NCBI GenBank assembly: GCA_964398885.1
Contig: CAYNOU010000001.1
Coordinates: 221-64,220, forward strand
DNA from: an uncultured Candidatus Cloacimonadota bacterium
GTDB lineage: Bacteria > Cloacimonadota > Cloacimonadia > JGIOTU-2
Direction: 5' to 3'
DNA: 64,000 nt
This document shows positions 644 through 58,156 of this stretch, in pieces (positions within the stretch are counted from its first letter, which is position 1; each line of letters starts with the position of its first letter). The notes below the pieces were generated by a model. That model saw nothing but the letters and a program-made list of their open reading frames with translations. It did no database searches and was not told where the DNA came from. The position numbers and the translations under genes were made by a program.

Positions 644-997
644 AGATAAAAGATGAAAAATTTCAAATCTCAAATAACAAATGACAAATAAATTCCAATC
701 CCCGATTAAATCGGGGACAAATTCCAAAAGAATGGCTTGTCCCGATGAATCGGGGGACGAATGTCGAGATAAAGAATAACAAGCCGATGTAGAAGTAACA
801 CGGAACTCTGTTCCGTTCCGTTCAGGCTCGATGCCTGACCGAGACTAACTGTTTAATGAAACTCTGGTTCATAAGTAACGGAGCAGAACCCCTTCTGACA
901 GATCTGTCTCCCGATATATCGGGAGACAAGACGGACTATGCGGAGAAACAGATTACAACAGAGACAATGATTAAAAATGAAAGATTAAAGACTAAAG
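644..997. repeat. Intergenic mosaic of short palindromic modules (exemplar tract)
   Basis: Back-to-back hairpins are tccccgat-taa-atcgggga (699-717), gtcccgat..tcgggggac (739-758), acggaac-tct-gttccgt (800-816) and tcaggc-tcgat-gcctga (822-838). Two perfect palindromes follow: gacagatctgtc (897-908) and the 22-nt gtctcccgatatatcgggagac (906-927). The same stems recur in many other spacers. Confidence 0.85.
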
Positions 998-8514: not shown

Positions 8515-8516
8515 TT

Positions 8517-13333: not shown

Positions 13334-13443
13334 GATTGTATAAATCCACTCCTGCCTGTCCGTTCTTTGGCGAGAGATGGGTGTCCCGATTCATCGGGAT
13401 AAGTTAAGTTACAACACGATTGTGTCACATTATGGAGGCTTCA

Positions 13444-17596: not shown

Positions 17597-17685
17597 TTCG
17601 TGTTAAGTATAATCGGTGACTACATCTATGTTTAATTATTTTATAAAAAATTTATTTAAAACTACTTTTTTTAAGAAAGGAAAAA

Positions 17686-19926: not shown

Positions 19927-20919
19927 GTGAAAAAAGGTATTTTCATTTTAGGTATTTTTGCATTTATTATCTTATCAGGATGCGCCAAAGCTCCAAAAAA
20001 AGTTTTACTGGTTTTTAGTTATCATCCGGAATATTCGTGGGTAAAGGAACAAACAAAAGGTGTGGAAGAAATTCTCACAGATAAAGTTTATAATCAAGAG
20101 GATAAAACGATTCTCCAACACAGTAAATATAAAATTGAAAAATTCTATCTGGATACCAAAAGACATACCAGTTCTGAATGGAATGAAAAAATTACTGAGG
20201 AAACAATTAAAAAAATCGCAGAATTCAAACCTGATATTGTTATTGTATTTGATGATAATGCTTGCGAATTGGTAGCAAAACAATACATCGGAAAAAAACT
20301 ACCTTTTGTTTTCTGCGGTATGAATGGTGAACCATCTGACTACGGATTCCCTGCTGAAAATATTACAGGCGTAATAGAAAGACTTCACATCGATGAATCG
20401 TATGAACTTCTAAAACAAATTCTACCGGATGTTGAGAAAATTGCCTTTATAACTGATAATAGTCATACTTCACAAAAGATTATGAGCAGGATAAACAAAG
20501 CTGATTTTCCTGCAGAAATTAGCGAAATTATGACCACAAATGATCTTAATGAATGGAAAAAAAAGATAAAGGATTTCCAAAATAATGTGGATGCAATCGG
20601 TATAATTTTGTATCACACAATCCAAGCAGACGGAAAAAGCATTCCTTCAGAAGAAGTAATTCATTGGACGATTGCCAATAATCAGCTTCCGGAATTTGTC
20701 TTCTGGGATTTTGTGATTGCAGAAGGTGCTTTTTGTGGTGTAACGATCTCCGGTTATGAGCAGGGAAAAGCAGCAGCAGAAATTGCAGTAAGAATTTTAA
20801 ATGGCGACAAACCTGCTGATATTCAAATTTCTCGTACAAACGCGGTAATTCCAATGATTAACCTGGAAAGAGCAAAACAACTTAACCTGAAAATTAATGA
20901 GGAAATTCTAAAAAAATAA
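19927..20919 (+). CDS. Lipoprotein, ABC_sub_bind-type solute-binding protein
   Basis: The GTG start follows gggggag. The lipobox is 'ILSGC'. 'KVLLVFSYHPEYSWVKEQTKG' and 'DIVIVFDDNA' are typical of the PF04392 family. Confidence 0.6.
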   Translation: MKKGIFILGIFAFIILSGCAKAPKKVLLVFSYHPEYSWVKEQTKGVEEILTDKVYNQEDKTILQHSKYKIEKFYLDTKRHTSSEWNEKITEETIKKIAEFKPDIVIVFDDNACELVAKQYIGKKLPFVFCGMNGEPSDYGFPAENITGVIERLHIDESYELLKQILPDVEKIAFITDNSHTSQKIMSRINKADFPAEISEIMTTNDLNEWKKKIKDFQNNVDAIGIILYHTIQADGKSIPSEEVIHWTIANNQLPEFVFWDFVIAEGAFCGVTISGYEQGKAAAEIAVRILNGDKPADIQISRTNAVIPMINLERAKQLNLKINEEILKK

Positions 20920-20929
20920 GGGAGTTAAA

Positions 20930-21595
20930 ATGTTAACTTTTGCAGAAGAACTTTTATTACTTGCCTTAGATGACGAAAAGGGAGTTCTCGTTCAAATGCC
21001 GATTATGTCATTTGAATATGGACTTGTTGGAGCAATTCTGATGGAATTAGCTCTGATAAACAAAATCGACACGGATTTGAAAAACCTGATTCTCGTAGAT
21101 GAATCTGAAACCGGAGATGAAATTTTTGATAAAGTCATCCGCTTTATTAAAGAATATCCAAAATCTAAAGATGCAAAATATTGGGTTAATGTAATTTGCA
21201 GTAGAATCGAAAATCTTAAAGACCTTTTATTAGCCCGTCTTATTGAAAAGGGTATTTTGAAAGAGATTGAAAAAAAGATTCTCTGGGTTTTTTCAAAAAG
21301 GCGATATCCAGTAGTTGATAACAAAGAAGAAAAAGAGGTGAAAACCAGGATTCGTGATACTATTTTGAGTGACGAAATTCCAGACCCGCGGGATATTGTG
21401 TTGATTTCCCTGGTAAGGACTTGTGGGCTGATGGATGAAATTTTTTCTACTGAAGAGATTGAGACTGCAAATTCTCGAATAGCTCAAATTGCCAAAATGG
21501 ATCTGATTGGTCAGGCTGTTTCTAAGGTTGTAAATGAGATTCAGAAAATGGTCACATCTGCTGTTGCTTCAGTTATGATGGGTCCTCCAGCATAA
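20930..21595 (+). CDS. GPP34/GOLPH3-family protein
   Basis: The N-terminal 'MLTFAEELLLLALDDEKG' and overall helical pattern are characteristic of PF05719. Confidence 0.6.
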   Translation: MLTFAEELLLLALDDEKGVLVQMPIMSFEYGLVGAILMELALINKIDTDLKNLILVDESETGDEIFDKVIRFIKEYPKSKDAKYWVNVICSRIENLKDLLLARLIEKGILKEIEKKILWVFSKRRYPVVDNKEEKEVKTRIRDTILSDEIPDPRDIVLISLVRTCGLMDEIFSTEEIETANSRIAQIAKMDLIGQAVSKVVNEIQKMVTSAVASVMMGPPA

Positions 21596-21699: not shown

Positions 21700-21845
21700 C
21701 CTTTCTCGTCTTCTCGTCTTCTCGTCTTCTCATCTTCTCATCTTCTTGTCTTCTCATCTTCTCGTCTTCTCGTCTTCTCATCTTCTCATCTTCTTGTCTT
21801 CTCATCTTCTCGTCTTCTCGTCTTCTCATCTTCTCGTCTTCTCCT
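21700..21845. repeat. Polypyrimidine octamer tandem array (~18 units) with 48-bp higher-order period
   Basis: The unit is TCTTCTYR, seen as tcgtcttc, tcatcttc and ttgtcttc. The variable dinucleotides read cg | cg cg ca ca tg ca | cg cg ca ca tg ca | cg cg ca cg. The array is intergenic, 75 bp upstream of 21920. Confidence 0.9.
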
Positions 21846-21919
21846 TTTATTTGACATTAGGAATTCGGATTTAGAAATTAATTTATTTTTTCCGGTTTTC
21901 CCGGATTAGGTGGTAAAAA

Positions 21920-22909
21920 ATGAAGCAGTTTAATTTTATTTTGATTTATCTTTTTATGAGTATTTGTTTCATTTTCTCTCTTTCAGCAGAGGAGAAAATT
22001 TTGGAGCAAACTATTGTTCTGGAAGTTCAGTGGTTTCCGCAATCTCAATTTGCAGGCTATATTGTTGCTTATGAAAAAGGATTTTATAAAGAGCTCGGAC
22101 TTGATGTTCAGATTAGTTTTTCGGATGGAACTGATAGTCCGATAAATAAAATCCTGAATGAAGAAGCAAAATTCTGTACAGCCTGGTTGTCTCAAGCGAT
22201 TGTTCTAAAAACAAAAGGAACACCAATCGTAAATATCTCTCAAATCCTGCAAAAATCTTCACTTTTGTTAGTTGCAAAAAAAACGAGCAATATTTTTGAG
22301 CCGACAGATATGAATGGAAAATGCATCAGTACCTGGGGAGGTGATTTTTCCATCCAACCCAATGCTTTTTTTAATAAATTTGATATTAATGCGAAAGTTG
22401 TTCCCCAGTCTTTTACAATCGATGCCTTTCTTGCCGGTGCCTGCGATGTTTGCTCTGCAATGTATTACAATGAATATCACAAATTCATTCAGGCCGGAAT
22501 AAATGAAGATGAATTAGTGCCTTTTTTCTACTCTGATTTTAACCTGAATTTTCCGGAAGATGGGATATATTGCACTGAAAAAACTTTTAATACTAATCCT
22601 GAACTTTGTAGAAAGATCGTTCAAGCTTCCATTTCAGGCTGGGAATATGCTTTTGCTCATCCTGAGGAAACTCTGGATTTTGTGATGAAATATTGTGATG
22701 AATTTTATATGCAAACCAACTGGTCTCATCAGAAGTGGATGCTGAAAGCAATTGAAACTGCAGTTAAATATCAAGTTGGCGATGATTCTGCGAATTGGGG
22801 AAAATTGCGAAAAGATGATTTCCTGAGAGTTGCTTATGAATTGAAAGAACAAGGTTTTATAGATGAAATTCCGAATTTCAATAATTTTTTTAAAGGTGAT
22901 TTGAAATGA
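21920..22909 (+). CDS. NMT1/THI5-like (nitrate/sulfonate/bicarbonate-type) solute-binding protein
   Basis: A signal peptide is present. 'VQWFPQSQFAGYIVAYEKGFYKELGLDVQI' is typical of this SBP family. The stop overlaps the start of the phosphatase gene (ATGA at 22906-22909). Confidence 0.65.
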   Translation: MKQFNFILIYLFMSICFIFSLSAEEKILEQTIVLEVQWFPQSQFAGYIVAYEKGFYKELGLDVQISFSDGTDSPINKILNEEAKFCTAWLSQAIVLKTKGTPIVNISQILQKSSLLLVAKKTSNIFEPTDMNGKCISTWGGDFSIQPNAFFNKFDINAKVVPQSFTIDAFLAGACDVCSAMYYNEYHKFIQAGINEDELVPFFYSDFNLNFPEDGIYCTEKTFNTNPELCRKIVQASISGWEYAFAHPEETLDFVMKYCDEFYMQTNWSHQKWMLKAIETAVKYQVGDDSANWGKLRKDDFLRVAYELKEQGFIDEIPNFNNFFKGDLK

Positions 22910-27937: not shown

Positions 27938-28260
27938 ATTTGATATAAAAACCTCTTAATTTCGAAAATGTTACAATGACTTTTGCTTTGCTTAAACTCT
28001 CATTCCCAAGCCCTCCCCAATTGAATTGGGGATTGGGAATGCTTACAACGCCATTTTCATTCTCCTTTCAGGCTCGGCGCCTCTGTCTCGGCTCCCGATA
28101 TATCGGGAGACGGGCAGACGGGTGCGTCTCGATTTGTTTTCGGGACATGTATGTTTCATCTTTAATCTTTTTCCTTTAATCTTTCCGCCATAGGCGGATC
28201 AGCCTCAGGCTGATAGTCTTTATTTTTGCGTTTTACAGCGCTATGCATTCCTAAAATATA

Positions 28261-33678: not shown

Positions 33679-33871
33679 AACGATACAAATAAATCAACTC
33701 AGGTGTCATGGTCCATACCATGACACAAATCACTGTCAGGGAATGGTCCCTGACAGCCCATGTTAAAATAAGATCCAACACGATTTATAATCATGTTTTT
33801 TAGACACCATTATAAATGGTGTCGAATCAGATTATGCTAAATTAAATAAAGAAATATTTTATCAAATAAAT

Positions 33872-36076
33872 TTATCTTAGAAGCAGCATCTTTTTAACGG
33901 CTGATTTATCTCCTGAAGATAATCTACAAAAATATATTCCATTAGGAACTTGGTTTCTATTCTCATCTTTCCCATCCCAATTTATGGAGTAGTCCCGATA
34001 CATCGGGGCTTTCGTGGAGAGAGACTCTCCACACTCCAAGCATTTCACCAATTGTCCTTTTACATTATAAATTTTTATCTCTGCGTTCTTTGCGTCTCTG
34101 CGGTGAATATTAAAAGATATAGTGGTTGAGCTGCTGAAAGGATTAGGATGGTTAGTAAGTTGGACACCATTTGCTATTTGAAGCTCCTCATCAACACTCG
34201 CAGTTGAATATTCATAAATACTTGCAGAAGTGCTTTCTAAATATAAGAGATAATTATTACTATTTCGTTTAAAAGGTATAATACTCGTTGCATGTGACCA
34301 GTTCTGAAAATTATAAATTTCGTTTAAGTAGTTGTATTCAATACTTGTTAAATCGTATATACTACATGTTTCCCCACCTAAAAATAAAAGATGATTCTCT
34401 CTATCAATACCTAATCTTCCGCCTTTGTTAATAGTGAATAAATATTCCGGCGTTTCTGGATTTGAAATATCAAATATACTGCAATCACCGAAATCAAGAC
34501 TTTCACTGATAAAAAGATAATGTTCATAAGTTCCTATATTCTGAGCAGGCATAATATCCTCCAATATGAGAGTATTTGCTAATTCTAAATCAGTAGTATC
34601 AATATTTCTGACTACATAGAGGTCATCACCTAAAATTATATAGGCAATATTATCATAAAAACAGATAAATCCACCATGAGCACCTGGTATTTCTAATGTA
34701 GCCACTTCCTCTAATTGATTATTAGAATCAAGTATATATTTATGCAATGTATCGTTATAAACTATGAAAAATCCAATATCTTCTTTATAATATGGCTCAA
34801 GTGCCTGAATATAAAGAGTATCCCAAGGTATAAGGCCACCTTCTTCTGTGATATTTAATATTATATCTACCCATATTTCATTTTCTATGTCAGTCATTCC
34901 AGAAATAGCTATTATATCTCCGTCACCATAAAATAAAGCAGAATGGAACTCTTCAAGATATTCTCCAATATATTGTGGGTCATTGAGGTTAGAAATATCA
35001 AAGGAATGGATTCCACGAAGATAAGAATTTACAAAAAACATATTATCTCGTATATATGCGTTATAAAAACTACCATAGGTACAATAATTTCCAATATGGT
35101 CTAAACTATTCTCTGCAATGGAAAATATCTCTATGCCGTATTCACCTGCTCCCCAATAAACTATATTATTATAAATTATTGGTTTTCCACCACCCCATAC
35201 AGGATATACATCATGATAATAATCTAAAAGAACAGGATTGTCCAAATTGCTTATGTCAAAAAGTCTTAAACCACTACCACTTACAATCATTTTATCACCA
35301 GAAATATCTATATTCCACTGAAACAGTTCTATTTCATTTATCATTTCCCAATCAAATGGTTCTGAAATATCCCAAAATTCTATCTCAGCACCATTGCCGA
35401 TAACAAGAATGGTATCTTGTATAAGCTTAGCGCATCTATAACCCCAAGTATCATTTACATCATATTGAGCAATGACTTGCAAACTATCAGGATTTGATAT
35501 ATCATATAGTCTTACAATCCCATGTAATTTATTAAAGGCAATATTTTCTTTAATGTATAGTAGAACTAAATTCTGGGGAGCATCAATTTGGGTGATTTCA
35601 TCAAATGTTTCATTATCATAGATATGAATTATACTTTTGCTATTTTGATAATCCCAATCGTGAACAAAGACATAATTATTATTTATAAAAGCATAAGAGA
35701 ATGAATTGAGATATAAGGAATCAGTTAAAACTGGATTGTATTTATCTTCAATATTAAAACGATAAAGAACATATTCTGGAATGAGAGTAGATGCATAAGC
35801 AAAATTATCCTTAACCACCACACTATAAGTAAGATGATATAGATTCACATCACTTAATAATGTTAAGCTATGGTCATCTTCAATATGGAATATCTGGAAG
35901 CACCTTATATTTACAGCGTAGAGATAATCATCCTGAATATTAAATCCATCATAATCTGGGGAATAACATCCCGAAAAGCCAAACTCTGAAATCTTGTTAA
36001 ATTCAAAAGCATTTATAAAAAGGGGATCAGCAAATATTATTAAGGTTAGGATTAATGATAAAATTATATATTTCAT
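33872..36076 (-). CDS. Surface protein with LVIVD-like beta-propeller repeats and T9SS-type C-terminal domain
   Basis: I prefer the start at 36076 ('MKYIILSLILTLIIFA' after aagagg) to the 36259 extension. Repeats are 'RLYDISNPDSLQV', 'LRLFDISNLDNPVL', 'IHSFDISNLNDPQY' and 'CSIFDISNPETPEY'. The C-terminus is 'NPFSSSTTISF...IKIYNVKGQLV...GIYFCRL'. Confidence 0.7.
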   Translation of the reverse strand: MKYIILSLILTLIIFADPLFINAFEFNKISEFGFSGCYSPDYDGFNIQDDYLYAVNIRCFQIFHIEDDHSLTLLSDVNLYHLTYSVVVKDNFAYASTLIPEYVLYRFNIEDKYNPVLTDSLYLNSFSYAFINNNYVFVHDWDYQNSKSIIHIYDNETFDEITQIDAPQNLVLLYIKENIAFNKLHGIVRLYDISNPDSLQVIAQYDVNDTWGYRCAKLIQDTILVIGNGAEIEFWDISEPFDWEMINEIELFQWNIDISGDKMIVSGSGLRLFDISNLDNPVLLDYYHDVYPVWGGGKPIIYNNIVYWGAGEYGIEIFSIAENSLDHIGNYCTYGSFYNAYIRDNMFFVNSYLRGIHSFDISNLNDPQYIGEYLEEFHSALFYGDGDIIAISGMTDIENEIWVDIILNITEEGGLIPWDTLYIQALEPYYKEDIGFFIVYNDTLHKYILDSNNQLEEVATLEIPGAHGGFICFYDNIAYIILGDDLYVVRNIDTTDLELANTLILEDIMPAQNIGTYEHYLFISESLDFGDCSIFDISNPETPEYLFTINKGGRLGIDRENHLLFLGGETCSIYDLTSIEYNYLNEIYNFQNWSHATSIIPFKRNSNNYLLYLESTSASIYEYSTASVDEELQIANGVQLTNHPNPFSSSTTISFNIHRRDAKNAEIKIYNVKGQLVKCLECGESLSTKAPMYRDYSINWDGKDENRNQVPNGIYFCRLSSGDKSAVKKMLLLR
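33972..34141. repeat. 170-bp block identical to 37182-37351 (inside T9SS C-terminal-domain coding sequence)
   Basis: By-eye alignment with a constant offset of 3210 nt shows no mismatch. Flanking coding sequence on both sides diverges. The block contains the hairpins cccgat-ac-atcgggg and gtggagag-aga-ctctccac. Confidence 0.85.
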
Positions 36077-36728: not shown

Positions 36729-36892
36729 TGAAACCAGAAATGTAAAATGTAAAATTAAAAATGAAAAATTAGGGATAGGAATGGTAGAATGGAATATTAA
36801 AATATCGTCATTGCTCAAACACAATTTTTTCTTTCTTGCTTTCATCTTTTCCCCAAAAATATAAATACAATTTAATAATAATTAAAATAACC

Positions 36893-36938
36893 TTGTCAAA
36901 TAAAAGTTACTTAAAGAGTAAAAAAATAAGTACAAAAT
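36893..36938. repeat. Conserved ~45-bp box, copy 1
   Basis: ttgtcaaataaaagttacttaaagagtaaaaaaataagtacaaa recurs at 40593-40637 with 1 mismatch. Both copies lie upstream of minus-strand T9SS-cargo genes. Confidence 0.85.
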
Positions 36939-37081
36939 TATACTCTATTATCCCGATCCGTTCAGACTTCCCGATGAAATCGGGGAGACTAATATACCCG
37001 TTCTCCGGAGCACTGCGAAGGGTGAATCGGGAGTATCAGAGCAGATTATGGAGAGATAAAAAAATATTTTATCAAATAAAC

Positions 37082-38089
37082 CTATCTCAGAAGTAGCATC
37101 TTCTTAACTGCTGATTTATCTCCTGAAGATAATCTACATAAATAAATTCCAGTTGGTAACTGCTTTCCATTTTTATCTTTTCCATCCCAATTTATGGAGT
37201 AGTCCCGATACATCGGGGCTTTCGTGGAGAGAGACTCTCCACACTCCAAGCATTTCACCAATTGTCCTTTTACATTATAAATTTTTATCTCTGCGTTCTT
37301 TGCGTCTCTGCGGTGAATATTAAAAGATATAGTGGTTGAGCTGCTGAAAGGGTTGGGATAAGAGGATAGCATTAATTTTTCTTTTTCTCTATTTGAATTT
37401 TCCGTAACAGAGGTAATTATGTGATAAAATATCTTTAAGTAAGGCCGTTTTTCCGGGAAATCAATACCAATATCACTAGTATAAAAACATAAAAAATCCC
37501 AATGATTATCATAATCTGTATTTATTGGAAAGCGAACACGAAATTGGCATCTCTCATAATCTTCTTGTACTAAAGTTTCTATATAGGAGCCTACCTGCAT
37601 TTTTTGAAATCCGATATTAAAATAAGAACATAACACACCTATATTGCTGACAATAGTTTGGGGATCACCCGGATCGCCAGCTGTCCAATCTGAATAGTCT
37701 AAACTTGGACCATAATCTATAAGATCCATAATACAGAACAATGTATCGCCACCTGGCACATCCCATATTGGGTAAGAATAATTCCCAATATTACTTTGGC
37801 CATTATATAGATAAACACCAACCTCCGCTGAATCTATTTCAGTGCTATCATTGAACAATATTAATGGCATGTCAAAAGAAAGATAGCCTCTGTCGTAGGA
37901 AGTATACTGAACCCAATCACCAGGATAAAACCCCAATGATATTGTGCTCATATTATAAAAACCACCATTTTCAGCATATGACATATCACCATCCAGATAA
38001 TCTGTACTATAAACAATTAGTGAATCCTGAGCTCGTAGAGAAATGGAAAAGAAGAGTATAAAAGTATAGATAAAAACTACTTTTTTCAT
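37082..38089 (-). CDS. Secreted protein with T9SS-type C-terminal domain
   Basis: A signal peptide is present. The last ~90 aa are nearly identical to those of 33872..36076. Confidence 0.65.
   Translation of the reverse strand: MKKVVFIYTFILFFSISLRAQDSLIVYSTDYLDGDMSYAENGGFYNMSTISLGFYPGDWVQYTSYDRGYLSFDMPLILFNDSTEIDSAEVGVYLYNGQSNIGNYSYPIWDVPGGDTLFCIMDLIDYGPSLDYSDWTAGDPGDPQTIVSNIGVLCSYFNIGFQKMQVGSYIETLVQEDYERCQFRVRFPINTDYDNHWDFLCFYTSDIGIDFPEKRPYLKIFYHIITSVTENSNREKEKLMLSSYPNPFSSSTTISFNIHRRDAKNAEIKIYNVKGQLVKCLECGESLSTKAPMYRDYSINWDGKDKNGKQLPTGIYLCRLSSGDKSAVKKMLLLR
37182..37351. repeat. 170-bp block identical to 33972-34141
   Basis: See the partner feature at 33972-34141. Confidence 0.85.
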
Positions 38090-38143: not shown

Positions 38144-40429
38144 TTATTTCATCAGAATCATCTTCCTTGTACATGACTCATCACCAGATGATAGTCGATA
38201 TAGATAAATTCCAGAGGAAACAGATTTGCCATTATCATCTTTGCCATTCCACACAACCTTAGTAAATTCGGAATTTCCATCCTCCGAAGCAGAGCTTCTG
38301 CGGAGGACGGGCGGGGTTCGGAGTTCGAAATTCTTCACCAATTGCCCTTTTATATTATAAATTTCTATTTGTGCATTTTTGTGTGATTTTGTGGCTAAAT
38401 TGAACGAAATCGTTGTTGAACTGCTGAATGGATTGGGATAATTGAAAAGAGAGAAAGTAATGTCTGTAATTTCTTCATTCTCATCCACAGAAACTATACC
38501 ACCTTCGTTAAATACAGCTACATACTCAAGCCAGGTTCCTATCCATAGATTATCATTAGTATCAAAAAATAAGGCAGATGTGCGGGTATCTGGTAACAAG
38601 GAATTTCCCATATCATATACAGTTACTACATCGCCGTCTATTTTAACTAATCCTCCTTCAGTAGCAGATGGATATCTAAATCCAGCAACCCAAACGCTTC
38701 CATCAGATGCAAGTGCAATATCATTTATCTTCTCCAAGCCGTATGAATAACCGTAGATATGCCAGCTTGAGCCATCAAACTTTCCAAGACAATCACCTTC
38801 AGTTCCTACCCAGATATTCTCTTCATTATCAACTAAAATGCAGGATATTTCATTACTCGGAATATTTGAATTGCTTGTATTATAAATTATCCACTCATCT
38901 TCTTTATCAAATCTGGCAATGCCATTATAACAAGTGCCAAGCCAGATGTTTCCTTCATTATCAAAATCTAAATCAGATACATGATTCCCTGGTATACCGG
39001 AATTATAAGTTTTATACACTTCACAAATCTGTGCTTGCTCATCAAACATTATCAATCCCTCTCCATCTGCTCCGAGCCATTTAACATTATTAGTATCTAT
39101 TTTGATACTAAGAAAGTTATTATATGGTAAGATAGAATTATAGTAGTTGTAATATGTCCATTCGTTACCATCAAAACAGGCTATTCCGCCCTCGCTGTTA
39201 TCTGCATCTGTCGTAGCAGCCCAGATATGACCGTAAGAATCCGTATCAAATGACAGTATACGATTACTGGGCAGGTTAGAATTAGACATATTATATAAAC
39301 TCCATTCTGAGTTTTGATAATGTGCCACTCCCATAGGGTTAGAAATACTCCCAACACCTATCCATGCTCCATTCTCATTGCAATGTACACAGGTTATCCA
39401 ATGATAAGACAAAATAGAATTACTTACATTATAACTGGTAAAACTCTCATCATCAAATTTTACAAGTCCATAATCCTGAACTGCCAGCCATTTGATACCA
39501 TCAGAATCTACCAGAATATCAGTTACATTATTGCCTGGAATATTTGAATTTCCAGTATGCCATACAGTCCAATTCTCTTCATCAAATTTTACTAAACCAG
39601 TATCTGCTGTTGCTATCCATTTGTTTCCTTGTGCATCTATTGCTATATCATATAACTCCTCACTCGGTAATCCAGAGTTCGCCATCGTGTATCCTGTCCA
39701 TTCTTCTGTTTCAGTATCAAAACACCCCAAACCGCCATGATAACTTGCCCATTTTCGCACGGTAAACCATATATAATTATCAGTATCAATTTCTAGGGCA
39801 GTTACATCCCCACTCTCTATTCCAGAATTAAGGGTAGAAAATTCTTCCCATTCAAAATTGTTAAACTTTATTAACCTTGCATTTCCAGTAAACCATTTAG
39901 TTCCATCTGGGGTAATAATTAAAGATCTAACCCCCACAAAATCAATTCCAATGGTATCTTCATCAAATAAAGTCCATTCATTTCCCTGAATTTTTATTAT
40001 ATAATCATCCATTCCAATCCAGATAGTAGTATCGTTTTCTGTTGCTATACAATATATATGTTTTCTTGGTAGTTCAGAGTTATAATAATCATAGTAATAC
40101 CAGTTTTCATAATCATATTGTGCGATTGCTTTTATCCCCCGTATATCACTGGTGTTCATACCTACCCAAATATTACTACTTTGCACAGCTACGGAATTAA
40201 GTCTATTCGTAGCAGGCACTCCAGTTCCTCTATTAAAGAATATCATCTCCTCAGTATTTTTATTAAATCTCGTTAGTCCCCCAGAATGAGCTACCCATAA
40301 GAAATCACCATCTTCTTTAATGTCATTAACATATAAGCCAGTAGTATAATTAATCCACTCAGGGTTCTGTGAAAATAGGAATGAGACAGGAAGAAGTAAG
40401 ATGGATATGATTAGAAATAATTTTCTCAT
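38144..40429 (-). CDS. Surface protein with two-component-regulator-propeller (Reg_prop) repeats and T9SS-type C-terminal domain
   Basis: I prefer the start at 40429 ('MRKLFLIISILLLPVSFLFS'). There are many repeats such as 'NSGLPSEELYDIAIDAQGNKWIATADTGLVKFD'. The C-terminus is 'NPFSSSTTISFNL...IEIYNIKGQLV...GIYLYRL'. Confidence 0.7.
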   Translation of the reverse strand: MRKLFLIISILLLPVSFLFSQNPEWINYTTGLYVNDIKEDGDFLWVAHSGGLTRFNKNTEEMIFFNRGTGVPATNRLNSVAVQSSNIWVGMNTSDIRGIKAIAQYDYENWYYYDYYNSELPRKHIYCIATENDTTIWIGMDDYIIKIQGNEWTLFDEDTIGIDFVGVRSLIITPDGTKWFTGNARLIKFNNFEWEEFSTLNSGIESGDVTALEIDTDNYIWFTVRKWASYHGGLGCFDTETEEWTGYTMANSGLPSEELYDIAIDAQGNKWIATADTGLVKFDEENWTVWHTGNSNIPGNNVTDILVDSDGIKWLAVQDYGLVKFDDESFTSYNVSNSILSYHWITCVHCNENGAWIGVGSISNPMGVAHYQNSEWSLYNMSNSNLPSNRILSFDTDSYGHIWAATTDADNSEGGIACFDGNEWTYYNYYNSILPYNNFLSIKIDTNNVKWLGADGEGLIMFDEQAQICEVYKTYNSGIPGNHVSDLDFDNEGNIWLGTCYNGIARFDKEDEWIIYNTSNSNIPSNEISCILVDNEENIWVGTEGDCLGKFDGSSWHIYGYSYGLEKINDIALASDGSVWVAGFRYPSATEGGLVKIDGDVVTVYDMGNSLLPDTRTSALFFDTNDNLWIGTWLEYVAVFNEGGIVSVDENEEITDITFSLFNYPNPFSSSTTISFNLATKSHKNAQIEIYNIKGQLVKNFELRTPPVLRRSSASEDGNSEFTKVVWNGKDDNGKSVSSGIYLYRLSSGDESCTRKMILMK

Positions 40430-40592
40430 GATGACTCCTTTCTTAATGGGTATAATGAATTCTGCAGAATAGAGAAACAACACTCAAAGCTGTCATTTTG
40501 ATAATTCCATTAAATGAGTTTAGTATTATTATTTGCTTTTAAATTTCTTTATCAACTATTTAGGAAACAATTTTATAAAAATAAAAAATATT

Positions 40593-40637
40593 TTGTCAAA
40601 TAAAAGTTACTTAAAGAGTAAAAAAATAAATACAAAC
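40593..40637. repeat. Conserved ~45-bp box, copy 2
   Basis: It matches 36893-36938. It lies 164-208 nt upstream of the 40429 start. Confidence 0.85.
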
Positions 40638-40757
40638 TATGCTCCAACACGGTTTGTAATCATGTTTTAATATTGTTTAGACACCATTACAAATGGTGCC
40701 GGATCAGATTATGTAAGTTACAAATGGTGTCAGAGCAGATTATTTTTAAAAAAATAT

Positions 40758-43397
40758 TTATTGCAATTTATTTTTAATCTCAGCTAAAACTTTTATTGCT
40801 TCTAAAGGGGTAATATTATTTGTATCAATATTTTTTATATCTTTTAATGCTTCTTTCTCTTTATTCGTTTTTTGTGAAAGGAAATCAAAAAAATTTGTCT
40901 GAGTAGCAGAACTTTTTTCTCTTTTGGCCCTTTCAAACATACTTGTCTCGTTAAATTCATTTTTTTCTAAATTTTTCAAGATTTCTTTTGCACGAATAAC
41001 TACTTTATCTGGGATGCCAGCAAGTTTTGCTACTTGTATTCCATAACTCTGGTCTGCGCTTCCTGGAACAACCTTTCTTAAGAAGATAACCTTATCTTTC
41101 CATTCCTTTGCAGTAATATTATAGTTTTTTACTGCAGGAAATATATCAGCCAATTCGGTAAGTTCATGATAATGGGTAGCAAATAAGGTTTTTGCTGCCA
41201 CATTTTTATTTTCGTGTAGGTATTCTACAACAGCCCAGGCGATGCTGAGTCCATCAAAAGTGCTTGTCCCTCGTCCTATCTCATCAAGAAGAATAAGACT
41301 TCTTGGAGTTGCATTGTGTAAGATATTTGCTGTTTCTATCATTTCAACAAGAAAAGTACTCTGTCCCAGTGCGAGATTATCAGAAGCACCTACTCTGGTA
41401 AATATTTTATCCACAATTCCAATTTTTGCAGAGGCTGCAGGAACAAACGAACCAATTTGAGCCATTAAAACAATCAATCCTACCTGACGCAAAAAAGTAG
41501 ATTTTCCAGCCATGTTCGGTCCTGTAATAAGCAAAATCCTATCTGATTTATTATTCAGGTATGTATCATTGGGAATAAAAGTTTCTTCAGTAATCAGTTT
41601 TTCTATTACAGGATGTCGCCCATCTTTTATTTCTATTTTTAGTTCATCTGTAATTTCCGGTCTTGAATAATTATTATAATATGCAATCTGTGCAAAATTT
41701 GTTATAACATCCAGAATTGATATTACATAGGAATATTTTTGCATTCTTGGAATGAATTTTGTTAGCTTATTTCTTATTTCAGTAAACAGAGAATATTCCA
41801 ACTGCTTTATTCGTTCTTCAGCACCTAAAACCTTGCTTTCATATTCTTTTAACTCAGGAGTAATAAATCTTTCTGCATTTACAAGAGTTTGCTTTCGTGT
41901 ATAGTTATCAGGAATCTTATCCAGATACGATTTAGTAACTTCAATGTAATACCCGAACACATTATTGAATTTTACTTTTAGCTTTTGAATTCCAGTTCTT
42001 TTTATCTCCTTATCTTGTAGTTTTGCAATCCATTTTTTACCGTTTTTACTCGCATTTCGTAGAGTATCTAATTCTTCATTATACCCATCTTTGATGATTC
42101 CACCATCTTGAATGGTAAGCGGTGCTTCTTCTATTATTGCATTTTCAATAATCAGTATTACTTCATCAAAATTTTGAATAGAATTAAACATATCTTTGAG
42201 AATTTTAGATTCACAATCTCTTATTAAATCAGCAATTGGTGTGGATAATTTCAGATAATTTTTTAACGCGATGAGGTCTCTCGGATATGCTTTTTCAGTT
42301 CCTATTTTGCTGATAATTCTTTCAATATCACCTATATCTTTCAGAATTTCAATTAATGAATTTCTTATGTAAGATTTATCAAGTAGTTCAGAAACAGCGT
42401 CCAAACGGTTATCTATTTCATCTTTAATAATTAGTGGATTTAATATCCATTGAAAAAGAAGTCGGCTACCCATTGAAGTTTTATTATAATCTATTGTATC
42501 AAGAAGAGTGCCTTTTCTTTCTCGTGTTCTTATTGATTCTATGAGTTCTAAATTATGTCGTGAGATTGCATCAACCTGCATAAACTGGCTGGTTGAGTAA
42601 AAGTTAATGTTTGTTATATGTTTGAGTTCAGTCCCTTTTAAATCTTGCAAATAGGAAAGTATTGCGGCTGATGCGCAGATTGTATTATCTCTTCCAGCTA
42701 AACCGAATCCATCTAATGATAGAACCGCAAAGTGTCTTTTCAGAATATCTTCTGCTTCAATATAATCGTATCTCCATGATTCATATTTTGTGAATGTGGG
42801 TGAATAGAAAATTTTTATGTCTTGCTCCAATTTTAATTCTGCACCTTCTGGTATAAGTATTTCAGTTGGATGGATTCTTACAATTTCATCTAACAGTTTA
42901 TCTTTTGATAATTCTGTGCATAAGAATTTACCAGTTGATATATCAATGGATGCCACTCCGCAGTTTGATTTTCCTTCATATATTGCAGTTAGAAAGTTAT
43001 TACTTTTCCCCTTTAGATAGTCTTGTTCTAAAATTGTTCCAGGTGTTATGACCTCAACAATTTCTCTTTTTACTAATTTTTTTGCAAGTTTTGGGTCTTC
43101 AACCTGTTCGCAAATTGCAACTTTAACTCCATTATCAATTAGTTTTTTTAGGTAATTATTTAAAGCATGATAAGGAAAACCAGCAAGCGGGACAGGATTT
43201 TTCTTTTTTTTATCTCTTGTAGTAAGAGTAAGACCCAAAATTTTGGAAGCTTTCTTTGCATCGTCAAAAAAGGTCTCGTAGAAATCTCCCATTCTAAATA
43301 AGAGTAAGGCATCGGGCTGTTTCCTTTTTATGGATAAGTATTGATTCATTAAAGGCGTAAATTCTTGTGAGGAATCAGATTTTGATGATTTCGTCAT
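40758..43397 (-). CDS. mutS: DNA mismatch repair protein MutS
   Basis: 'TPLMNQYLSIKRKQPDALLLFRMGDFYETFFDDA' and the Walker A 'TGPNMAGKSTFLRQ' are present, along with 'DEIGRGTSTFDG'. The length is 879 aa. Confidence 0.97.
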   Translation of the reverse strand: MTKSSKSDSSQEFTPLMNQYLSIKRKQPDALLLFRMGDFYETFFDDAKKASKILGLTLTTRDKKKKNPVPLAGFPYHALNNYLKKLIDNGVKVAICEQVEDPKLAKKLVKREIVEVITPGTILEQDYLKGKSNNFLTAIYEGKSNCGVASIDISTGKFLCTELSKDKLLDEIVRIHPTEILIPEGAELKLEQDIKIFYSPTFTKYESWRYDYIEAEDILKRHFAVLSLDGFGLAGRDNTICASAAILSYLQDLKGTELKHITNINFYSTSQFMQVDAISRHNLELIESIRTRERKGTLLDTIDYNKTSMGSRLLFQWILNPLIIKDEIDNRLDAVSELLDKSYIRNSLIEILKDIGDIERIISKIGTEKAYPRDLIALKNYLKLSTPIADLIRDCESKILKDMFNSIQNFDEVILIIENAIIEEAPLTIQDGGIIKDGYNEELDTLRNASKNGKKWIAKLQDKEIKRTGIQKLKVKFNNVFGYYIEVTKSYLDKIPDNYTRKQTLVNAERFITPELKEYESKVLGAEERIKQLEYSLFTEIRNKLTKFIPRMQKYSYVISILDVITNFAQIAYYNNYSRPEITDELKIEIKDGRHPVIEKLITEETFIPNDTYLNNKSDRILLITGPNMAGKSTFLRQVGLIVLMAQIGSFVPAASAKIGIVDKIFTRVGASDNLALGQSTFLVEMIETANILHNATPRSLILLDEIGRGTSTFDGLSIAWAVVEYLHENKNVAAKTLFATHYHELTELADIFPAVKNYNITAKEWKDKVIFLRKVVPGSADQSYGIQVAKLAGIPDKVVIRAKEILKNLEKNEFNETSMFERAKREKSSATQTNFFDFLSQKTNKEKEALKDIKNIDTNNITPLEAIKVLAEIKNKLQ

Positions 43398-44431: not shown

Positions 44432-44461
44432 ATGTAAATCCTTTTTTGCCACAGAGGCACA

Positions 44462-44657
44462 GAGCACACAGAGATAAATGTAAAATTACGAATTACAAGT
44501 ACATTGCAATGATCCTAACGCCATTTTTAATGGTGTTTTAATAAACAGTCCCCGCGTACGCGGGGATCAAATCCTGCCCGTCTTGGCTCGGCACCAAGCC
44601 GAGACAGGTTAGGAACAATTAGGATCTGTACATTCAGCCTCTCAATTTTCATTATCC
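44462..44657. repeat. 196-bp composite module repeat, copy B
   Basis: It matches 17401-17596. The flanking spacer 44658-44790 carries further modules: gtcccgactcgtcgggat and tcccggtatatcgggagacgggcagac. Confidence 0.9.
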
Positions 44658-44847
44658 TTTGTCCCGACTCGTCGGGATGAATATTTCATCTAAAAATAAC
44701 CCGCAAATGATATGTTTCAAACACCATTATCCCGGTATATCGGGAGACGGGCAGACAGGTGAAATACTTTGTAATCAATTTAATCAGGGACGGCATGAAT
44801 GTTTCATTGTTGCGAAAGAGTTTGAATTTGTTTTTTTGGATTTTCTG

Positions 44848-48157: not shown

Positions 48158-48274
48158 CTGAAAATCTTAACCGCAAAGGACGCAAAGAATACAATCCCCG
48201 CGTCCGCAGGGACGCAAAGAAAATAATAATATAATAAAATACATAACTCTTCCGCCAGATGACGAATGTATATT

Positions 48275-51082: not shown

Positions 51083-51163
51083 CCGAGGAGTCGTCATGGA
51101 CCACTCCATGACGAACTTAAACCAACCACGGAATATCTTTTCCAAGGGATCTGCCCTCTGGCA
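51083..51163. repeat. 81-nt module, inverted copy of 14775-14855
   Basis: The reverse complement of 14775-14855 matches with 3 mismatches by eye. It contains cgtcatgg-..-ccatgacg. Confidence 0.85.
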
Positions 51164-53952: not shown

Positions 53953-54672
53953 TCATTTCAAAATAATGCACTTTTTGATAGAAGTAAATGTATCGGTATA
54001 TAATTTGTAGAAATAAATTCCAGAACTCATATCTTTAGCGTTCCATATCAGGTAATGAAAGCCAGCTGGCTTATCTTCATCAACGAGGGTTTCAACTAAT
54101 TGACCTTTTAGATTATAAATTTGCAGTTTGACATTACTGGCTTTTGGTAATGAATAACTGATGAAGGTTGTTGCATTAAAGGGATTAGGGCTGTTTTGTC
54201 TTAGTTGAAACACGGGAGGAATATTAGAACTATTGACATCGGTTAAATATGATGTTAACATATAGGGTTCAAATGGGCTCCCAATAGTTTCTCCATCTTC
54301 AAAGACAATAATCTCATTACAATCATAAACCACATCAGTTGAGTCATCATATATTTTAAAGTTTATCTCTTCTCCGATTATATTTCCGACAATTGTAAGG
54401 TACCAATATCCATCATAGTAAGGTGGGTTGGCTGGTTGCCAGATGCCTACTGCTCGGCAATCAGATTCTCCATCAGGTCCGAACGCACCTAACATATTAT
54501 TCCCATTTCCTTCAAATACTACTCCATCAAATGTAACTTCTGCCATTAAGACCATTGAATATTGAGTTCCATATATGTGCTCCCAGTTTGGTGGGTCTGC
54601 ATATAAAAATTGATTTACAAATATTAATAATAAGATAAGAATAAAAATCTTTATTTTCATTAATTCTTCCAT
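53953..54672 (-). CDS. Small secreted protein: uncharacterised ~110-aa domain + T9SS-type C-terminal domain
   Basis: A signal peptide is present. The C-terminus 'NPFNATTFISYSLPKASNVKLQIYNLKGQLVETL...GIYFYKL' is a canonical T9SS CTD pattern. Confidence 0.7.
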   Translation of the reverse strand: MEELMKIKIFILILLLIFVNQFLYADPPNWEHIYGTQYSMVLMAEVTFDGVVFEGNGNNMLGAFGPDGESDCRAVGIWQPANPPYYDGYWYLTIVGNIIGEEINFKIYDDSTDVVYDCNEIIVFEDGETIGSPFEPYMLTSYLTDVNSSNIPPVFQLRQNSPNPFNATTFISYSLPKASNVKLQIYNLKGQLVETLVDEDKPAGFHYLIWNAKDMSSGIYFYKLYTDTFTSIKKCIILK

Positions 54673-54775
54673 TCGGCTCTATGTGAAATTAATTTATTAA
54701 TTCATATATAAAAATTTGAATATAAGGAAAGGCAGTTTATTTAAAACTACCTTTCCTTTTATTGGTTAACTGCAA

Positions 54776-57700
54776 TTATTTAAGTTTTATTAATTTCTGA
54801 ATTTCAGTATATTTATCAGTCGTTAGTTTATAGAAATATATTCCGCTTGGTAATGAGTTATTTTTAGCATCTTTTCCATTCCATTTTACAAGATATGTAT
54901 CCGGTTCTTTTGTTGAATTAACTAAGGTTTTCACTTTTTGACCTAAGATATTATATATTGAGATATCAACTTTAGTTCTTTCTGGAATTTGATACTTTAT
55001 AGAAGTTGAGTTATAGAAAGGATTGGGATGGGAATTATATAAATTATACTCTTCTGGAATATCACTATTTGAACCATTACAAGTTACAATAACAGCTTTT
55101 TCAGGAGAGCCAATAATAGCATCATTTTGGAAGATTATTTCCTCATTACTTTTAAATGTTTCTTCAGTAACTATATCATAAACTTTGAAATATAATTCTT
55201 CTCCATTCTCATTACCAACTATAGTAAAATACCAAAAATCATACACTTTTTTTCCAACAGAACGACAATTACCTTCATTATCAAAAACTCCTACAATATA
55301 TTTATCAGAGTTGCCAATGGTTTCATTATTGATTTTTATATCTGCCATAGCTATCATATTATATTGTGTCCCGGTGATTAATTGCCATCCTGCCCGATTA
55401 TAATCGTTATTTTTCTTATATAAAGGCTCAGACTTGTCATTTTCAATAAGAGGATAAATTAATACAGAAGAATCAGGTACATTAATTTTATAAGTTACTC
55501 CCGGTTCCAATTGAGTCAAATCACCAATCCAACCACCACTATATATGGCAGATTTGTCTTGTGTCTTTACCACAGTTGCACTTATTGAAGCTAATGCTTC
55601 AGATAAAGTAAGTGAGACATAAGGATAATATCCAACCCAATTCCAATTTGGCACTAAGTTAATTGGATGTGTCACTGGATTTATCGCTGTTCCACTCACA
55701 GTAAATGTATCAACAGCATTATTCATATACACTAGATAACCTTCACCATCGGTTATTTCTGATAAACCTGGACCCCATGATGTTCCATTGTATGTTGTAG
55801 AATTATATTGGTCTTTTACCTGATAAATATCATTTGGTGTTAAAGTATCAAATATTGTTGATATTGAAGGATCAGGTGGATGGAGATTAAATGATATCCA
55901 ATTCCATTCTTCAATTAGAGAGAAGTCTTGGTTATGCATTGGTGAGGGTGCATTTAAGCTAATAGCGTTATCAGTGCAATCTGCAAAAGTTATTGTTTCA
56001 ACACAGTCATAAATGCTGTCTGTTTGGGTTTCATACATTTTGAAGCTAATATCTTCACCAGAGTTGTTGTTACTTACGATTGTTAGATACCAATAGCCAT
56101 CAAGGTCCCAGTAATTAGTCCATAGAGGATGATTACCTTCTTGCCATATAGCTATTCCTCGGCAATCACCTCCAGGTCCAAAAGCAGCTACCTGGTTGCT
56201 CCCTATATGTTTAACAAATTTACCATCATAAGTTACTGTTGCATATTCTATCATTACAAATTGTGTACCCGAGATTACTTCCCAATTAATCAATGTCATA
56301 TCAACATTTCTTGTTGTATCTTCTGCTACAACTTCTACATCACTAATAGTAACACTTGTATAATGATCTAATGAAGCAATAACATCGTAGGTACCACTTA
56401 AGATCTCAATTTGGTAATCACCATTAACATCTGGATGGACTGTTACAGTATCTGCTGTCACATCAACATCCTGCACATTGCCAATTCCATCATAGAGAGT
56501 AACAGTTCCTTCAATATAACCTTCATATCTAATGAGTTGTAATATAAAATTGATATTTTCAGTTATCAGTCCAGATTGAACAACCACATTTGTTATTGTA
56601 GAGTCGCTATAGCCAGCCAAATAGGCGCTAACATTATAAGTTCCTGGTGCAATTTCAATTTCATATTCATAATAAAGTATAATACCGGGATTATAAGGAT
56701 CTTCTACACCATAAGGATGTACAGTTATTCCTCCAGCAGATACTTCGGTTTCTAATATATTACCAATTCCTTCATTGATATCCACTGTTCCTTTAATCTT
56801 ACCAGGTGGAGGAGGAGATAGAGTAAAGTCTAAGATTACTATTTGATTGGCAACATTTACAGAATAATATGATGAAGGATTATATCCTGTTAATGAGGCA
56901 GTAACATCATAAGTTCCTGATGATACATCTAAAAAGTAGTTTCCATCTCCATCAGGATTTACAGTTGTTATTGTATTCGGTGGCGTTAATAAAGTAGCTG
57001 TTACAGTAACATCCTGGACATTACCATAGCCCCCATCAAGAGTAACTACTCCACGAATTCCAGTTTGGACAAAGTAAAAAGCTCCAATATCATTTCTTGT
57101 ATTATCCGGGTCATTGTAAATAGGGTCTGGATGGCCAGTATCAATACAAGGTGATTTTGTTGAATCTGGAGTAGGAATATTAACCCATGTTAAATGAAAA
57201 TCTCCATTTAAGGGGTCTGCAAAAAGTGGGTCAGAATCTACACAGGTTGTGTCAGTATAACTTTGCCCTGTTCCATTCTCAATATCAGAATATGTAGCAG
57301 TTAATGTGCCTCCGCTATCAAAGTAAATTCCATTAATTCCATTATCCCAAACGATACTATTTAACAAAGTAACATCTGAATTAAATAAACATGCAATTCC
57401 GCTTCCACCACTATACGCAAGATTTTTTGAAATAGTTGAATTAATTAATGTAGGATTAGAATTATCAAAGCAGGCGATTCCACCTCCATTCCAGGAGGTA
57501 TTGTTATTATAAATACACACTTTTGTTAGTTCTGGATTGGAAGTATAGCAAAATATACCACCGCCATCATAGGTAGCGGTATTATCATGAACAGAAACAG
57601 TTGTTATATTCGGGTTTGAGTTTAACATATAAATTCCACCGCCATATCCAGCAGCATAATTTTTCATTATCGTTACATTTTCAAAAGTTTCGTTAGAATT

Positions 57701-58114
57701 TTCAAGAAAAACAGCACCACCCGAACTCTCAGCTCCAGTTGCCCTACCGTATTCTAATATGCAATAAGCTAAGCTTGAACCTTCCTGCCCGTTTATATTG
57801 GTGTCATAGAATCTAAGTCCATACCAACCGGTTGTAGTATCCTGTGCAGTAAAAGTAATAAGACTATCAGCATTACCGTCTGCAATTAACCTGCCATATA
57901 CAATGAACTTATAGTGACCAGAGAATTGAACAATTACTCCTGGTTCAATTGATAAAGTACTATCAGATGGAATTGTTATTTCACCATTAATAATATATGG
58001 ACTGCCTGCAAAGGTCCATATTCCGCTGACATTGCCACCGGGAATATTTGTGTCAGCGATTGTAATTGAGGCTGTAAGTAATACACCAAATAAGATAATA
58101 ACTATCTTTTTCAT
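54776..58114 (-). CDS. Large surface protein: right-handed beta-helix + three CarboxypepD_reg-like domains + two copies of the uncharacterised domain + T9SS CTD
   Basis: N-terminal repeats such as 'GGGIYMLNSNPNIT' and 'GGGIFCYTSNPELT' are beta-helix/Pmp-like. 'GTVTLYDGIGNVQDVDVTA...GDYQIEILSGTYDVIASLDHY' is carboxypeptidase-regulatory-like and occurs three times. The CTD is 'NPFYNSTSIKYQIP...ISIYNILGQKV...GIYFYKL'. Confidence 0.75.
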   Translation of the reverse strand: MKKIVIILFGVLLTASITIADTNIPGGNVSGIWTFAGSPYIINGEITIPSDSTLSIEPGVIVQFSGHYKFIVYGRLIADGNADSLITFTAQDTTTGWYGLRFYDTNINGQEGSSLAYCILEYGRATGAESSGGAVFLENSNETFENVTIMKNYAAGYGGGIYMLNSNPNITTVSVHDNTATYDGGGIFCYTSNPELTKVCIYNNNTSWNGGGIACFDNSNPTLINSTISKNLAYSGGSGIACLFNSDVTLLNSIVWDNGINGIYFDSGGTLTATYSDIENGTGQSYTDTTCVDSDPLFADPLNGDFHLTWVNIPTPDSTKSPCIDTGHPDPIYNDPDNTRNDIGAFYFVQTGIRGVVTLDGGYGNVQDVTVTATLLTPPNTITTVNPDGDGNYFLDVSSGTYDVTASLTGYNPSSYYSVNVANQIVILDFTLSPPPPGKIKGTVDINEGIGNILETEVSAGGITVHPYGVEDPYNPGIILYYEYEIEIAPGTYNVSAYLAGYSDSTITNVVVQSGLITENINFILQLIRYEGYIEGTVTLYDGIGNVQDVDVTADTVTVHPDVNGDYQIEILSGTYDVIASLDHYTSVTISDVEVVAEDTTRNVDMTLINWEVISGTQFVMIEYATVTYDGKFVKHIGSNQVAAFGPGGDCRGIAIWQEGNHPLWTNYWDLDGYWYLTIVSNNNSGEDISFKMYETQTDSIYDCVETITFADCTDNAISLNAPSPMHNQDFSLIEEWNWISFNLHPPDPSISTIFDTLTPNDIYQVKDQYNSTTYNGTSWGPGLSEITDGEGYLVYMNNAVDTFTVSGTAINPVTHPINLVPNWNWVGYYPYVSLTLSEALASISATVVKTQDKSAIYSGGWIGDLTQLEPGVTYKINVPDSSVLIYPLIENDKSEPLYKKNNDYNRAGWQLITGTQYNMIAMADIKINNETIGNSDKYIVGVFDNEGNCRSVGKKVYDFWYFTIVGNENGEELYFKVYDIVTEETFKSNEEIIFQNDAIIGSPEKAVIVTCNGSNSDIPEEYNLYNSHPNPFYNSTSIKYQIPERTKVDISIYNILGQKVKTLVNSTKEPDTYLVKWNGKDAKNNSLPSGIYFYKLTTDKYTEIQKLIKLK

Positions 58115-58156
58115 GGTTCCTCCTTATTTAATTTTTTCATAGTTTCTTATATTTTA

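Follow-up and report, generated by a model that had tools for sequence, protein, structure and literature searches.

A Y-shaped palindromic element is translated in frame within type IX secretion signal domains of an uncultured Cloacimonadota bacterium

The 64-kb window described here, a stretch of DNA from an uncultured Candidatus Cloacimonadota bacterium (contig CAYNOU010000001.1), carries two minus-strand cargo genes, at 33872..36076 (734 amino acids) and 37082..38089 (335 amino acids), whose products end in type IX secretion system (T9SS) C-terminal domains (CTDs) and share within these domains a palindromic DNA element that is translated in frame. Both CTDs are of type A, are 94 amino acids long (33875..34156 and 37085..37366, minus strand), and run up to the stop codon. 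Their Por_Secre_tail/FlgD_ig domains exceed the Pfam cut-offs (PF18962 at 35.6 and 41.4 bits, respectively, with a cut-off of 27) and both also match TIGR04183; the CTD of the longer protein scores 40 bits with that model (cut-off of 23) and is matched by a CTD hidden Markov model (HMM). The N termini (MKYIILSLILTLIIFA... and MKKVVFIYTFILFFSISLRAQ) are signal-peptide-like as judged by eye, and the cargo parts upstream of the CTDs differ, with no shared similarity.

The segments 33972..34141 and 37182..37351 (both minus strand) match at 170 of 170 positions in a direct comparison within the window, bearing out the identical paralog block proposed in an earlier sequence-only reading of this DNA, and the block starts at the CTD's NPF motif and ends 11 nucleotides (nt) past the palindromic element (at WDG). 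The 300-nt context (33846-34145 versus 37056-37355, repeat pair D2) is 93% identical overall, its mismatches lying on the stop-codon side bar a few at the cargo edge. By our arithmetic, the chance of a mismatch-free run of 170 nt given 7% divergence is ∼0.93^170, or 4e-6.

Two palindromes had been noted in the block, and both are found, at 33994-34007 and 34014-34032. They are not separate modules, but parts of a single 57-nt Y-shaped unit, TTGGAGT-[hairpin 1]-[hairpin 2]-ACTCCATA, referred to here as the Y element, whose in-frame translation is LECGESLSTKAPMYRDYSI. Copy 1 lies at 33983..34039 (minus strand; cmsearch 55.6 bits, E of 6e-15; nhmmer E of 6e-15) and copy 2, identical in sequence, at 37193..37249 (minus strand). 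In copy 1 the closing stem joins TGGAGT (34033-34038, on the plus strand) with ACTCCA (33985-33990), hairpin 1 (34014-34032) reads GTGGAGAG-aga-CTCTCCAC, and hairpin 2 (33994-34007) reads CCCGAT-ac-ATCGGG. The predicted RNA fold is a three-way junction at -26 to -27 kcal/mol (z = -2.8). Members of the family are 51 to 57 nt long, with a 6-bp terminal inverted repeat that encloses two hairpins of 6 to 8 bp; the inverted repeat TGGAGT/ACTCCA is invariant, or nearly so, across 46 unique copies, and the two-hairpin Y fold is found in 39 of them. The three-way junction and a GAAA between the hairpins prompted a comparison with the hammerhead and other known ribozymes and RNA motifs, which was rejected: the CUGAUGA core is absent, the GAAA is not conserved among relatives, and Rfam 15 gives zero matches at gathering score in the window or in the 14 loci with intergenic copies (best local E of 0.2).

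The sequence-only reading gave the translation ECGESLSTKAPMYRDYS correctly, and likewise its place with respect to the canonical CTD at 53953..54678. When compared with the window CTDs at 53953..54678 and 54776..58123 and with 15 relatives, the segment exceeds the canonical 13-residue loop by 6 residues, and the TIGR04183 alignment breaks into two stretches there; the segment is thus an insertion relative to the family. In an AlphaFold model of the CTD of the 335-residue protein (pLDDT, the predicted local distance difference test score, of 81.5), six long strands form an Ig-like beta-sandwich, and CGESLSTKAPM (residues 42 to 52) is an unstructured, low-pLDDT surface loop between strands 36-41 and 53-60. 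Foldseek places this model with FlgD Ig-like domains, the PorZ CTD (5m11), and a T9SS-bound substrate CTD (8glk_D), at template modeling (TM) scores of ∼0.5 to 0.6. The loop is flanked on one side by the strand that follows the conserved IYNxKGQ turn and on the other by a strand with W(D/N)G at its end, and motif correspondence suggests that the Y element sits one loop downstream of this tight turn. In Porphyromonas gingivalis the CTD motifs essential for export are the tight turn and the C terminus, and an 11-residue insertion in another loop is harmless; Cloacimonadota are among the phyla that may possess a T9SS (PMC11285876).

Hairpin 2 belongs to a family that otherwise occupies intergenic spacers, as the sequence-only reading had claimed. 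The pattern CCCGAT-N0-12-ATCGGG occurs eight times in the window, with 0.01 expected from dinucleotide shuffles, and six of the eight occurrences are intergenic: at 701..715, whose flanks AATCCCCGAT..ATCGGGGACAAAT reappear in frame in CTD loops of locus L019; at 741..754, which matches the CTD copy at 15 of 17 positions (GTCCCGAT-nn-ATCGGGG); at 910..923; at 13385..13398, with an identical 15-mer in frame in a CTD at L048:16399; at 28094..28107, a pattern match within repeat D9; and at 36970..36984, ∼100 nt past the stop codon of gene 37082..38089. Nearly all of the window's perfect G+C-containing hairpins are intergenic and just after stop codons, and they fall into several families with covarying stems. 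Canonical intrinsic terminators are ruled out, as there are no T runs after the CCCGAT hairpins. A GTAG head beside the palindrome is seen at the CTD copy only and is absent at all six intergenic copies in the window.

Among database CTDs, the closest are in Cloacimonadota metagenome-assembled genomes (MAGs), and the proteins of the window are also present in JGI metagenomes of the Ga03155xx series; in a species-representative collection the best CTD match is 61 to 63% identical. One MAG CTD (L001, 76% identical) has a perfect hairpin 1 and a hairpin 2 reduced to a 5-bp stem, and a metagenome fragment (L002) is identical through the Y element and diverges just past WDG. Together with the window and 80 loci fetched from representative genomes, these make up a sample of 1.14 Mb, in which a CTD HMM scan finds 206 CTDs, 197 of them full length. 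Among the 197, inserts occur after profile column 45 (the Y loop) in 41, after column 19 (the first loop) in 19, after columns 7 to 10 in 11, and after columns 73 to 75 in 5. The inserts form hairpins, are richer in G+C than the remaining CTD (0.45 to 0.8 versus 0.30 to 0.40), and fold more stably than control CTD segments (median z of -1.9 versus 0; p = 3e-7). They match spacer sequences exactly over 15 to 21 nt; other CTD inserts match spacer modules of the window itself, namely 680-724 at 21 of 21 and 25 of 27 nt, the CCCGAT hairpin of spacer 644-997 at 18 of 18 nt, and 13385 at 15 of 15 nt.

Hairpins of this kind are concentrated in spacers and CTDs. Perfect G+C-containing hairpins number 1.64 per kb in spacers, 0.66 in CTDs, and 0.093 in other coding DNA. 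The final 270 nt of non-CTD genes have only 0.068 per kb (odds ratio of 9.8; p = 3e-8), so proximity to a gene end is not the cause, and bystander CTDs in the fetched flanks, which were not selected by a query, still have 0.52 per kb (p = 4e-5), so locus selection is not the cause either. In spacers, hairpins are denser between tandem and convergent genes (1.9 per kb) than between divergent ones (0.74 per kb) and sit closer to the upstream stop codon, with a median distance of 94 nt. For the CCCGAT hairpin itself the counts are 12 in spacers, 10 in CTDs, and a single one in 970 kb of other coding DNA (0.10, 0.18, and 0.001 per kb; odds ratio of 179; p = 2e-12), and the lone exception adjoins a contig end, where a truncated CTD is possible. 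It occurs in four CTD loops and in all three frames (PDxxG, PMTIG, SRFNRG, and APMYRD), which argues for several independent entries into CTDs. Two other approaches were set aside: an 8-mer intergenic-versus-coding log-odds profile along the CTD columns gave no signal because A/T-rich words dominated, and a comparison of spacer matches of the inserts with those of a conserved CTD segment had a control contaminated by unannotated CTD fragments, so the hairpin-density and pattern censuses were used in its place.

We note that the same CTD loop elsewhere encodes peptides such as HPELVEG, ILSGVEG, and STTLRMT (L024:7667, L026:4180, P0006, P0112-P0117, P0132, and P0136). These look like translations of further dispersed repeats, at times nested (VILS-PSTQLRTG-SVEG), and for one such insert a spacer of L045 holds a 28/30 match. 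A CTD loop at L008:5016 carries in frame heptamer words (TACGAGTTATGAGTTAGGAGTT) like those that fill short spacers of the window at 8452-8525, 18685-18706, and 44486-44500 (TTACGAG, TTACGGG, or TTAGGAG), and the insert runs on into TTACGAG-type heptamers as in the spacer at 8450-8504.

The Y element as a whole also has genuine spacer copies. An nhmmer search with the CTD-borne family as query finds complete elements in spacers, with no CTD flank in any frame, at L019:4809-4863, L005:1504-1559, and L023:4701-4801, the last being a longer version. A CTD-blind pattern (TTGGAGT N5-6 AGTCTCT N24-31 ACTCCATA) has 47 matches in metagenome contigs, of which 32 are in CTDs, 13 are genuine non-CTD copies, and 2 are due to chance. 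The 13 have two hairpins with other stems, are mostly clearly intergenic, and are sometimes in arrays. The same two versions exist between genes and in CTDs, one of 54 nt with a GCCGAG/CTCGGC-type second hairpin and one of 57 nt with a CCGAT..ATCGG second hairpin, and the latter supports the link to the CCCGAT family. At L090:12100-12250, L092, L098, and L005:1354-1709, the intergenic Y element lies within a larger conserved composite, in the order CATG-TCCCCGAT..ATCGGGGA-CGCAAAGGAGCATGAAAATTTCAGATGGT, then the Y element, then CAAATATAAAAG, and the repeat unit of the spacers may thus be ∼150 nt.

The 32 CTD-borne copies in the pattern scan all have a single strand and frame in common, even though the element is open in five of its six frames, and so the CTD-borne Y element looks like a single old capture spread by descent and conversion, while the CCCGAT hairpin looks to have entered CTDs many times. 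Five distinct close paralogs have a diversity of 0 over 68 nt and near 0 over ∼100 nt centered on the Y element, with pairwise diversity of 0.1 to 0.45 on either side, and this valley supports the gene conversion that the sequence-only reading had suggested.

A third CTD gene (38144..40483) in the same tandem locus carries a different insert in the same loop. This is a G+C-rich 36-nt hairpin (PVLRRSSASEDG; 38276..38311, minus strand; fold of -22 kcal/mol), unlike the Y element, and a related CTD in another MAG (L005:10001-10273) is empty at this site, with flanks ∼95% identical. No further copies of it were found in the 1.14 Mb, just chance 10- to 12-mers. The loop that hosts it is encoded by heptamers (GAACTCC GAACTCC GAATTCC GAATTTA, read as ELRTPNSEF), and even the empty loop therefore looks repeat derived. 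The spacers around the three CTD genes (33765-33836, 36867-37068, and 40567-40762) have mosaic segments in common at 72 to 89% identity (D7, D10, D13, and D17), suggesting that the locus arose by tandem duplication and later shuffling.

Upstream of the Y loop, the first loop of the two CTDs is encoded by the module CACCGCAGAGACGCAAAGAACGCAGAG (34079..34105, minus strand, with a second copy at 37289-37315), read as HRRDAKNAE. Alignment to the CTDs of L007 and L068 shows this DNA to be a locally frameshifted (+1/-1 nt) form of the common Cloacimonadota loop TAEDAENAE, made of 9-nt repeats ACCGCAGAGGACGCAGAGAAC, so that here the DNA is conserved where the peptide differs. Words of this family number 11 in CTDs and 3 in spacers (one of them at 48173-48189); 970 kb of other coding DNA has none. 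The resemblance that had been drawn between these codons and a spacer at 48171-48225 is real, with 17 of 18 positions identical, but weak, with an E of 0.11 in 1.14 Mb. That spacer (48167..48225) has the words CCGCAAAGGACGCAAAGAA and GGGACGCAAAGAA, and the likeness drawn between it and the HRRDAKNAE codons is plausible from these few cases.

[quoted passage not shown] A small, nonautonomous and presumably mobile repeat of this kind would reside in the intergenic DNA of Cloacimonadota, and would have passed from a spacer into a CTD by in-frame capture, once or a few times, in a permissive surface loop of a T9SS type A CTD, with remodeling of the loop during capture. Its translation would supply the end of one strand, an 11-residue loop, and the start of the next strand, and it is likely tolerated, and presumably neutral for secretion, because the two CTD motifs known to be needed for export are avoided. 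The element-bearing version of the CTD would then spread among paralogous cargo genes by duplication and gene conversion, with the conserved CTD motifs on either side supplying homology and the palindrome possibly acting as the initiating lesion, and the 170-bp identity in the window would be one long conversion tract. Entry into CTD loops would have happened many times over, and independently, for other spacer modules and for the simpler CCCGAT..ATCGGG hairpin.

Several observations weigh against this interpretation. The Y element replaces most of the 13-residue loop, with a net gain of 6 and not 19 residues, and a deletion or remodeling step is thus needed. No recognizable or consistent target-site duplication is present at the 13 intergenic copies, whose A/T-rich flanks, TAT and TA among them, are ambiguous; for the Y element itself no empty site came to light; no transposase, REP-associated tyrosine transposase (RAYT), or other mobilizing enzyme turned up, the open reading frames (ORFs) not having been screened for RAYT; and the loci were picked via CTD similarity, such that copy-number ratios are not genome-wide. 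Conservation points the same way. Between species the Y element is 89 to 93% identical and is the best-conserved DNA in the whole CTD, the flanks of which are 60 to 76% identical upstream and 49 to 69% downstream. Among 11 CTD-borne elements, 93% of the cells of hairpin 1 pair and six of its eight pairs have changed on both sides; in a model-fitted alignment of 17 distinct copies, which includes some reverse-strand reads and leans toward structure, pairing is 93.5% with double changes at 15 of 21 pairs. Neither count was reached in any of 500 shuffles or in any slid control, in which relatedness is not accounted for. The covarying peptides (CGESLST, CDESLVT, CFNSFEA, CVNSFDA, and CINRVNA) change at both residues as reverse-complement codon pairs, and where the sequence-only reading had reckoned with related CTDs that keep the peptide in nonpalindromic codons, those found elsewhere stay palindromic with compensatory changes. 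A neutral passenger should decay, and either selection on structure or a correcting mutational process must therefore be added; the paired stems and top conservation may reflect DNA or RNA structure selection or the template-switch correction of quasi-palindromes.

It is thus possible, if clearly the lesser prospect, that the Y element is a functional nucleic acid structure under selection within the CTD coding sequence, either as a DNA handle for recombination or conversion between secretion tags or as an mRNA structure affecting the translation, processing, or stability of T9SS cargo. Compensatory stem changes that alter both residues (G/S, D/V, F/E, and I/N), DNA that is better conserved than the surrounding beta-strands, the central position of the element in the diversity valley, and identity tracts that stop within ∼20 nt downstream of it in three independent sequences would all fit such a role. 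However, template-switch correction of quasi-palindromes can yield covariation without selection, the shuffle controls take no account of relatedness, no Rfam family is matched, and 156 of the 197 CTDs in the same genomes have no insert at the Y loop, so the element is not needed for T9SS export. A conversion hot spot that homogenizes or swaps T9SS signals, or a cis-regulatory mRNA structure of a secreted-protein regulon, is an idea that we entertain only tentatively.

The remaining explanations fare less well. The structure could have been born in the CTD, the intergenic copies being CTD remnants left by fragment duplication, and the position of some copies directly downstream of CTD genes (L019:4809, L023:4701, and L111:911), together with the CTD-gene-centered sampling, is in keeping with this. 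It is nonetheless unlikely, as the intergenic copies are without CTD-like flanks in any frame, have boundaries exactly at the inverted repeat TTGGAGT..ACTCCATA, have more diverse stems than the CTD copies, and include tandem arrays or copies distant from CTDs at L087, L090, L096, and L097. Selection on the Cys-containing loop peptide (LEC...YSI), for example, because the translocon or sortase would recognize it, with the palindromy incidental, could account for the Cys after LE and the YSI/HI strand being kept in every CTD copy and for the single frame throughout; but we regard it as very improbable, given that residues covary through reverse-complement codons without structural meaning for the protein, the same DNA element lies untranslated in spacers, the loop is of low model confidence, and the canonical CTDs in the window do not have a Cys loop. 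Chance palindromes or an assembly artifact have nothing in their favor beyond the shortness of the individual stems and are refuted by the excess of CCCGAT pattern matches over shuffles, the presence of the same element in independent assemblies of several projects, and the folding, hairpin-density, and CCCGAT-census statistics.

The window is replete with other repeats. A 202-nt composite intergenic repeat (17400-17601 and 44461-44662) with hairpins TCCCCGCGtaCGCGGGGA and GGCTCGGCACCAAGCCGAGAC is 95% identical between copies 27 kb apart, and two more families of spacer hairpins, TCGTCATGGA-nnnn-TCCATGACGA and TGTCAGGGA-nnnn-TCCCTGACA, are paired after gene ends (14748-14769, 14824-14847, 33703-33756, and 51091-51114). 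An 8-nt tandem repeat, TTCTCGTC, with ∼17.6 copies and a 24-nt super-period, occupies 21703-21843 in the spacer between 20912..21595 and 21917..22909. Among the neighboring genes, a two-gene unit at 991-2464 is present as two tandem diverged copies (D5 and D8; ∼80% identity) whose 143-residue products resemble, by eye, a putative HEPN-type toxin partner, and the apparent spacer at 6627-7057 holds two small adjoining ORFs that by eye are a putative Phd-YefM/RelE-ParE antitoxin/toxin pair.

In-frame palindromic repeats in T9SS tags are common in this phylum and apparently undescribed; in agreement with the sequence-only reading, which knew of no precedent in T9SS signals, full-text literature searches turned up no report that connects REP, MITE, or palindromic elements with T9SS signals or with Cloacimonadota. 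They represent a second, independent, and widespread case of in-frame palindromes, in an uncultured phylum and with an unusual domain preference, and they explain why Cloacimonadota annotations contain unusual G+C-rich peptides and HMM alignments that break in two. The inserts map CTD loops that tolerate foreign sequence, which is useful for the engineering of T9SS tags, and they illustrate the concerted evolution of secretion tags around a palindrome, offering a natural system for asking if intragenic hairpins persist by selection or by self-templated correction. Should the structure prove to be selected, this would be a structured nucleic acid element that covaries while translated; short of a functional structure, we regard the interest as solid rather than exceptional.

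Among known repeats, the REP sequences and the bacterial interspersed mosaic elements (BIMEs) are similar to the Y-type hairpins in being short, G+C-rich, imperfect, multicopy palindromes in spacers after gene ends, with fewer between divergent genes than between tandem or convergent ones, and with composite arrays. REPs have a conserved GT[AG]G head, however, and the intergenic hairpins of the window do not; classical REPs are also extragenic by definition, whereas the Cloacimonadota repeats are also translated. Cyanobacteria have very small dispersed hairpin repeats of ∼20 to 30 nt, in spacers and inside genes. These resemble the CCCGAT hairpin, with its four CTD loops and three frames, but the phylum and the sequences differ, and we know of no described preference of the cyanobacterial repeats for a secretion signal domain. 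Bacterial MITEs such as Correia, ERIC, and BOX (PMC10969869) share with the Y element the terminal inverted repeats, small size, lack of coding capacity, and occasional in-frame ORF fusions, but the Y element is far shorter than a typical MITE and forms a three-way junction instead of one long hairpin; no parent insertion sequence was recognized. The classic in-frame palindromic repeats are the Rickettsia palindromic elements (RPEs; Ogata et al. 2000, 2002, summarized in PMC10969869), to which the sequence-only reading had likened these palindromes, and the likeness holds as an analogy. Both are palindromic, are present in intergenic DNA and in frame within intact ORFs, are translated, and are thought to be placed where the protein fold tolerates them. 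RPEs are ∼100 to 150 bp, are restricted to Rickettsia, and occur in many unrelated genes, whereas the Y element is 51 to 57 nt, belongs to Cloacimonadota, has no sequence relation to them, and has coding copies essentially confined to T9SS CTD loops. The Y element is therefore an analogue of RPEs and not a member of the RPE sequence families: the behavior itself is known from RPEs, and what is new here is the sequence, the size, the host, and the range of targets.

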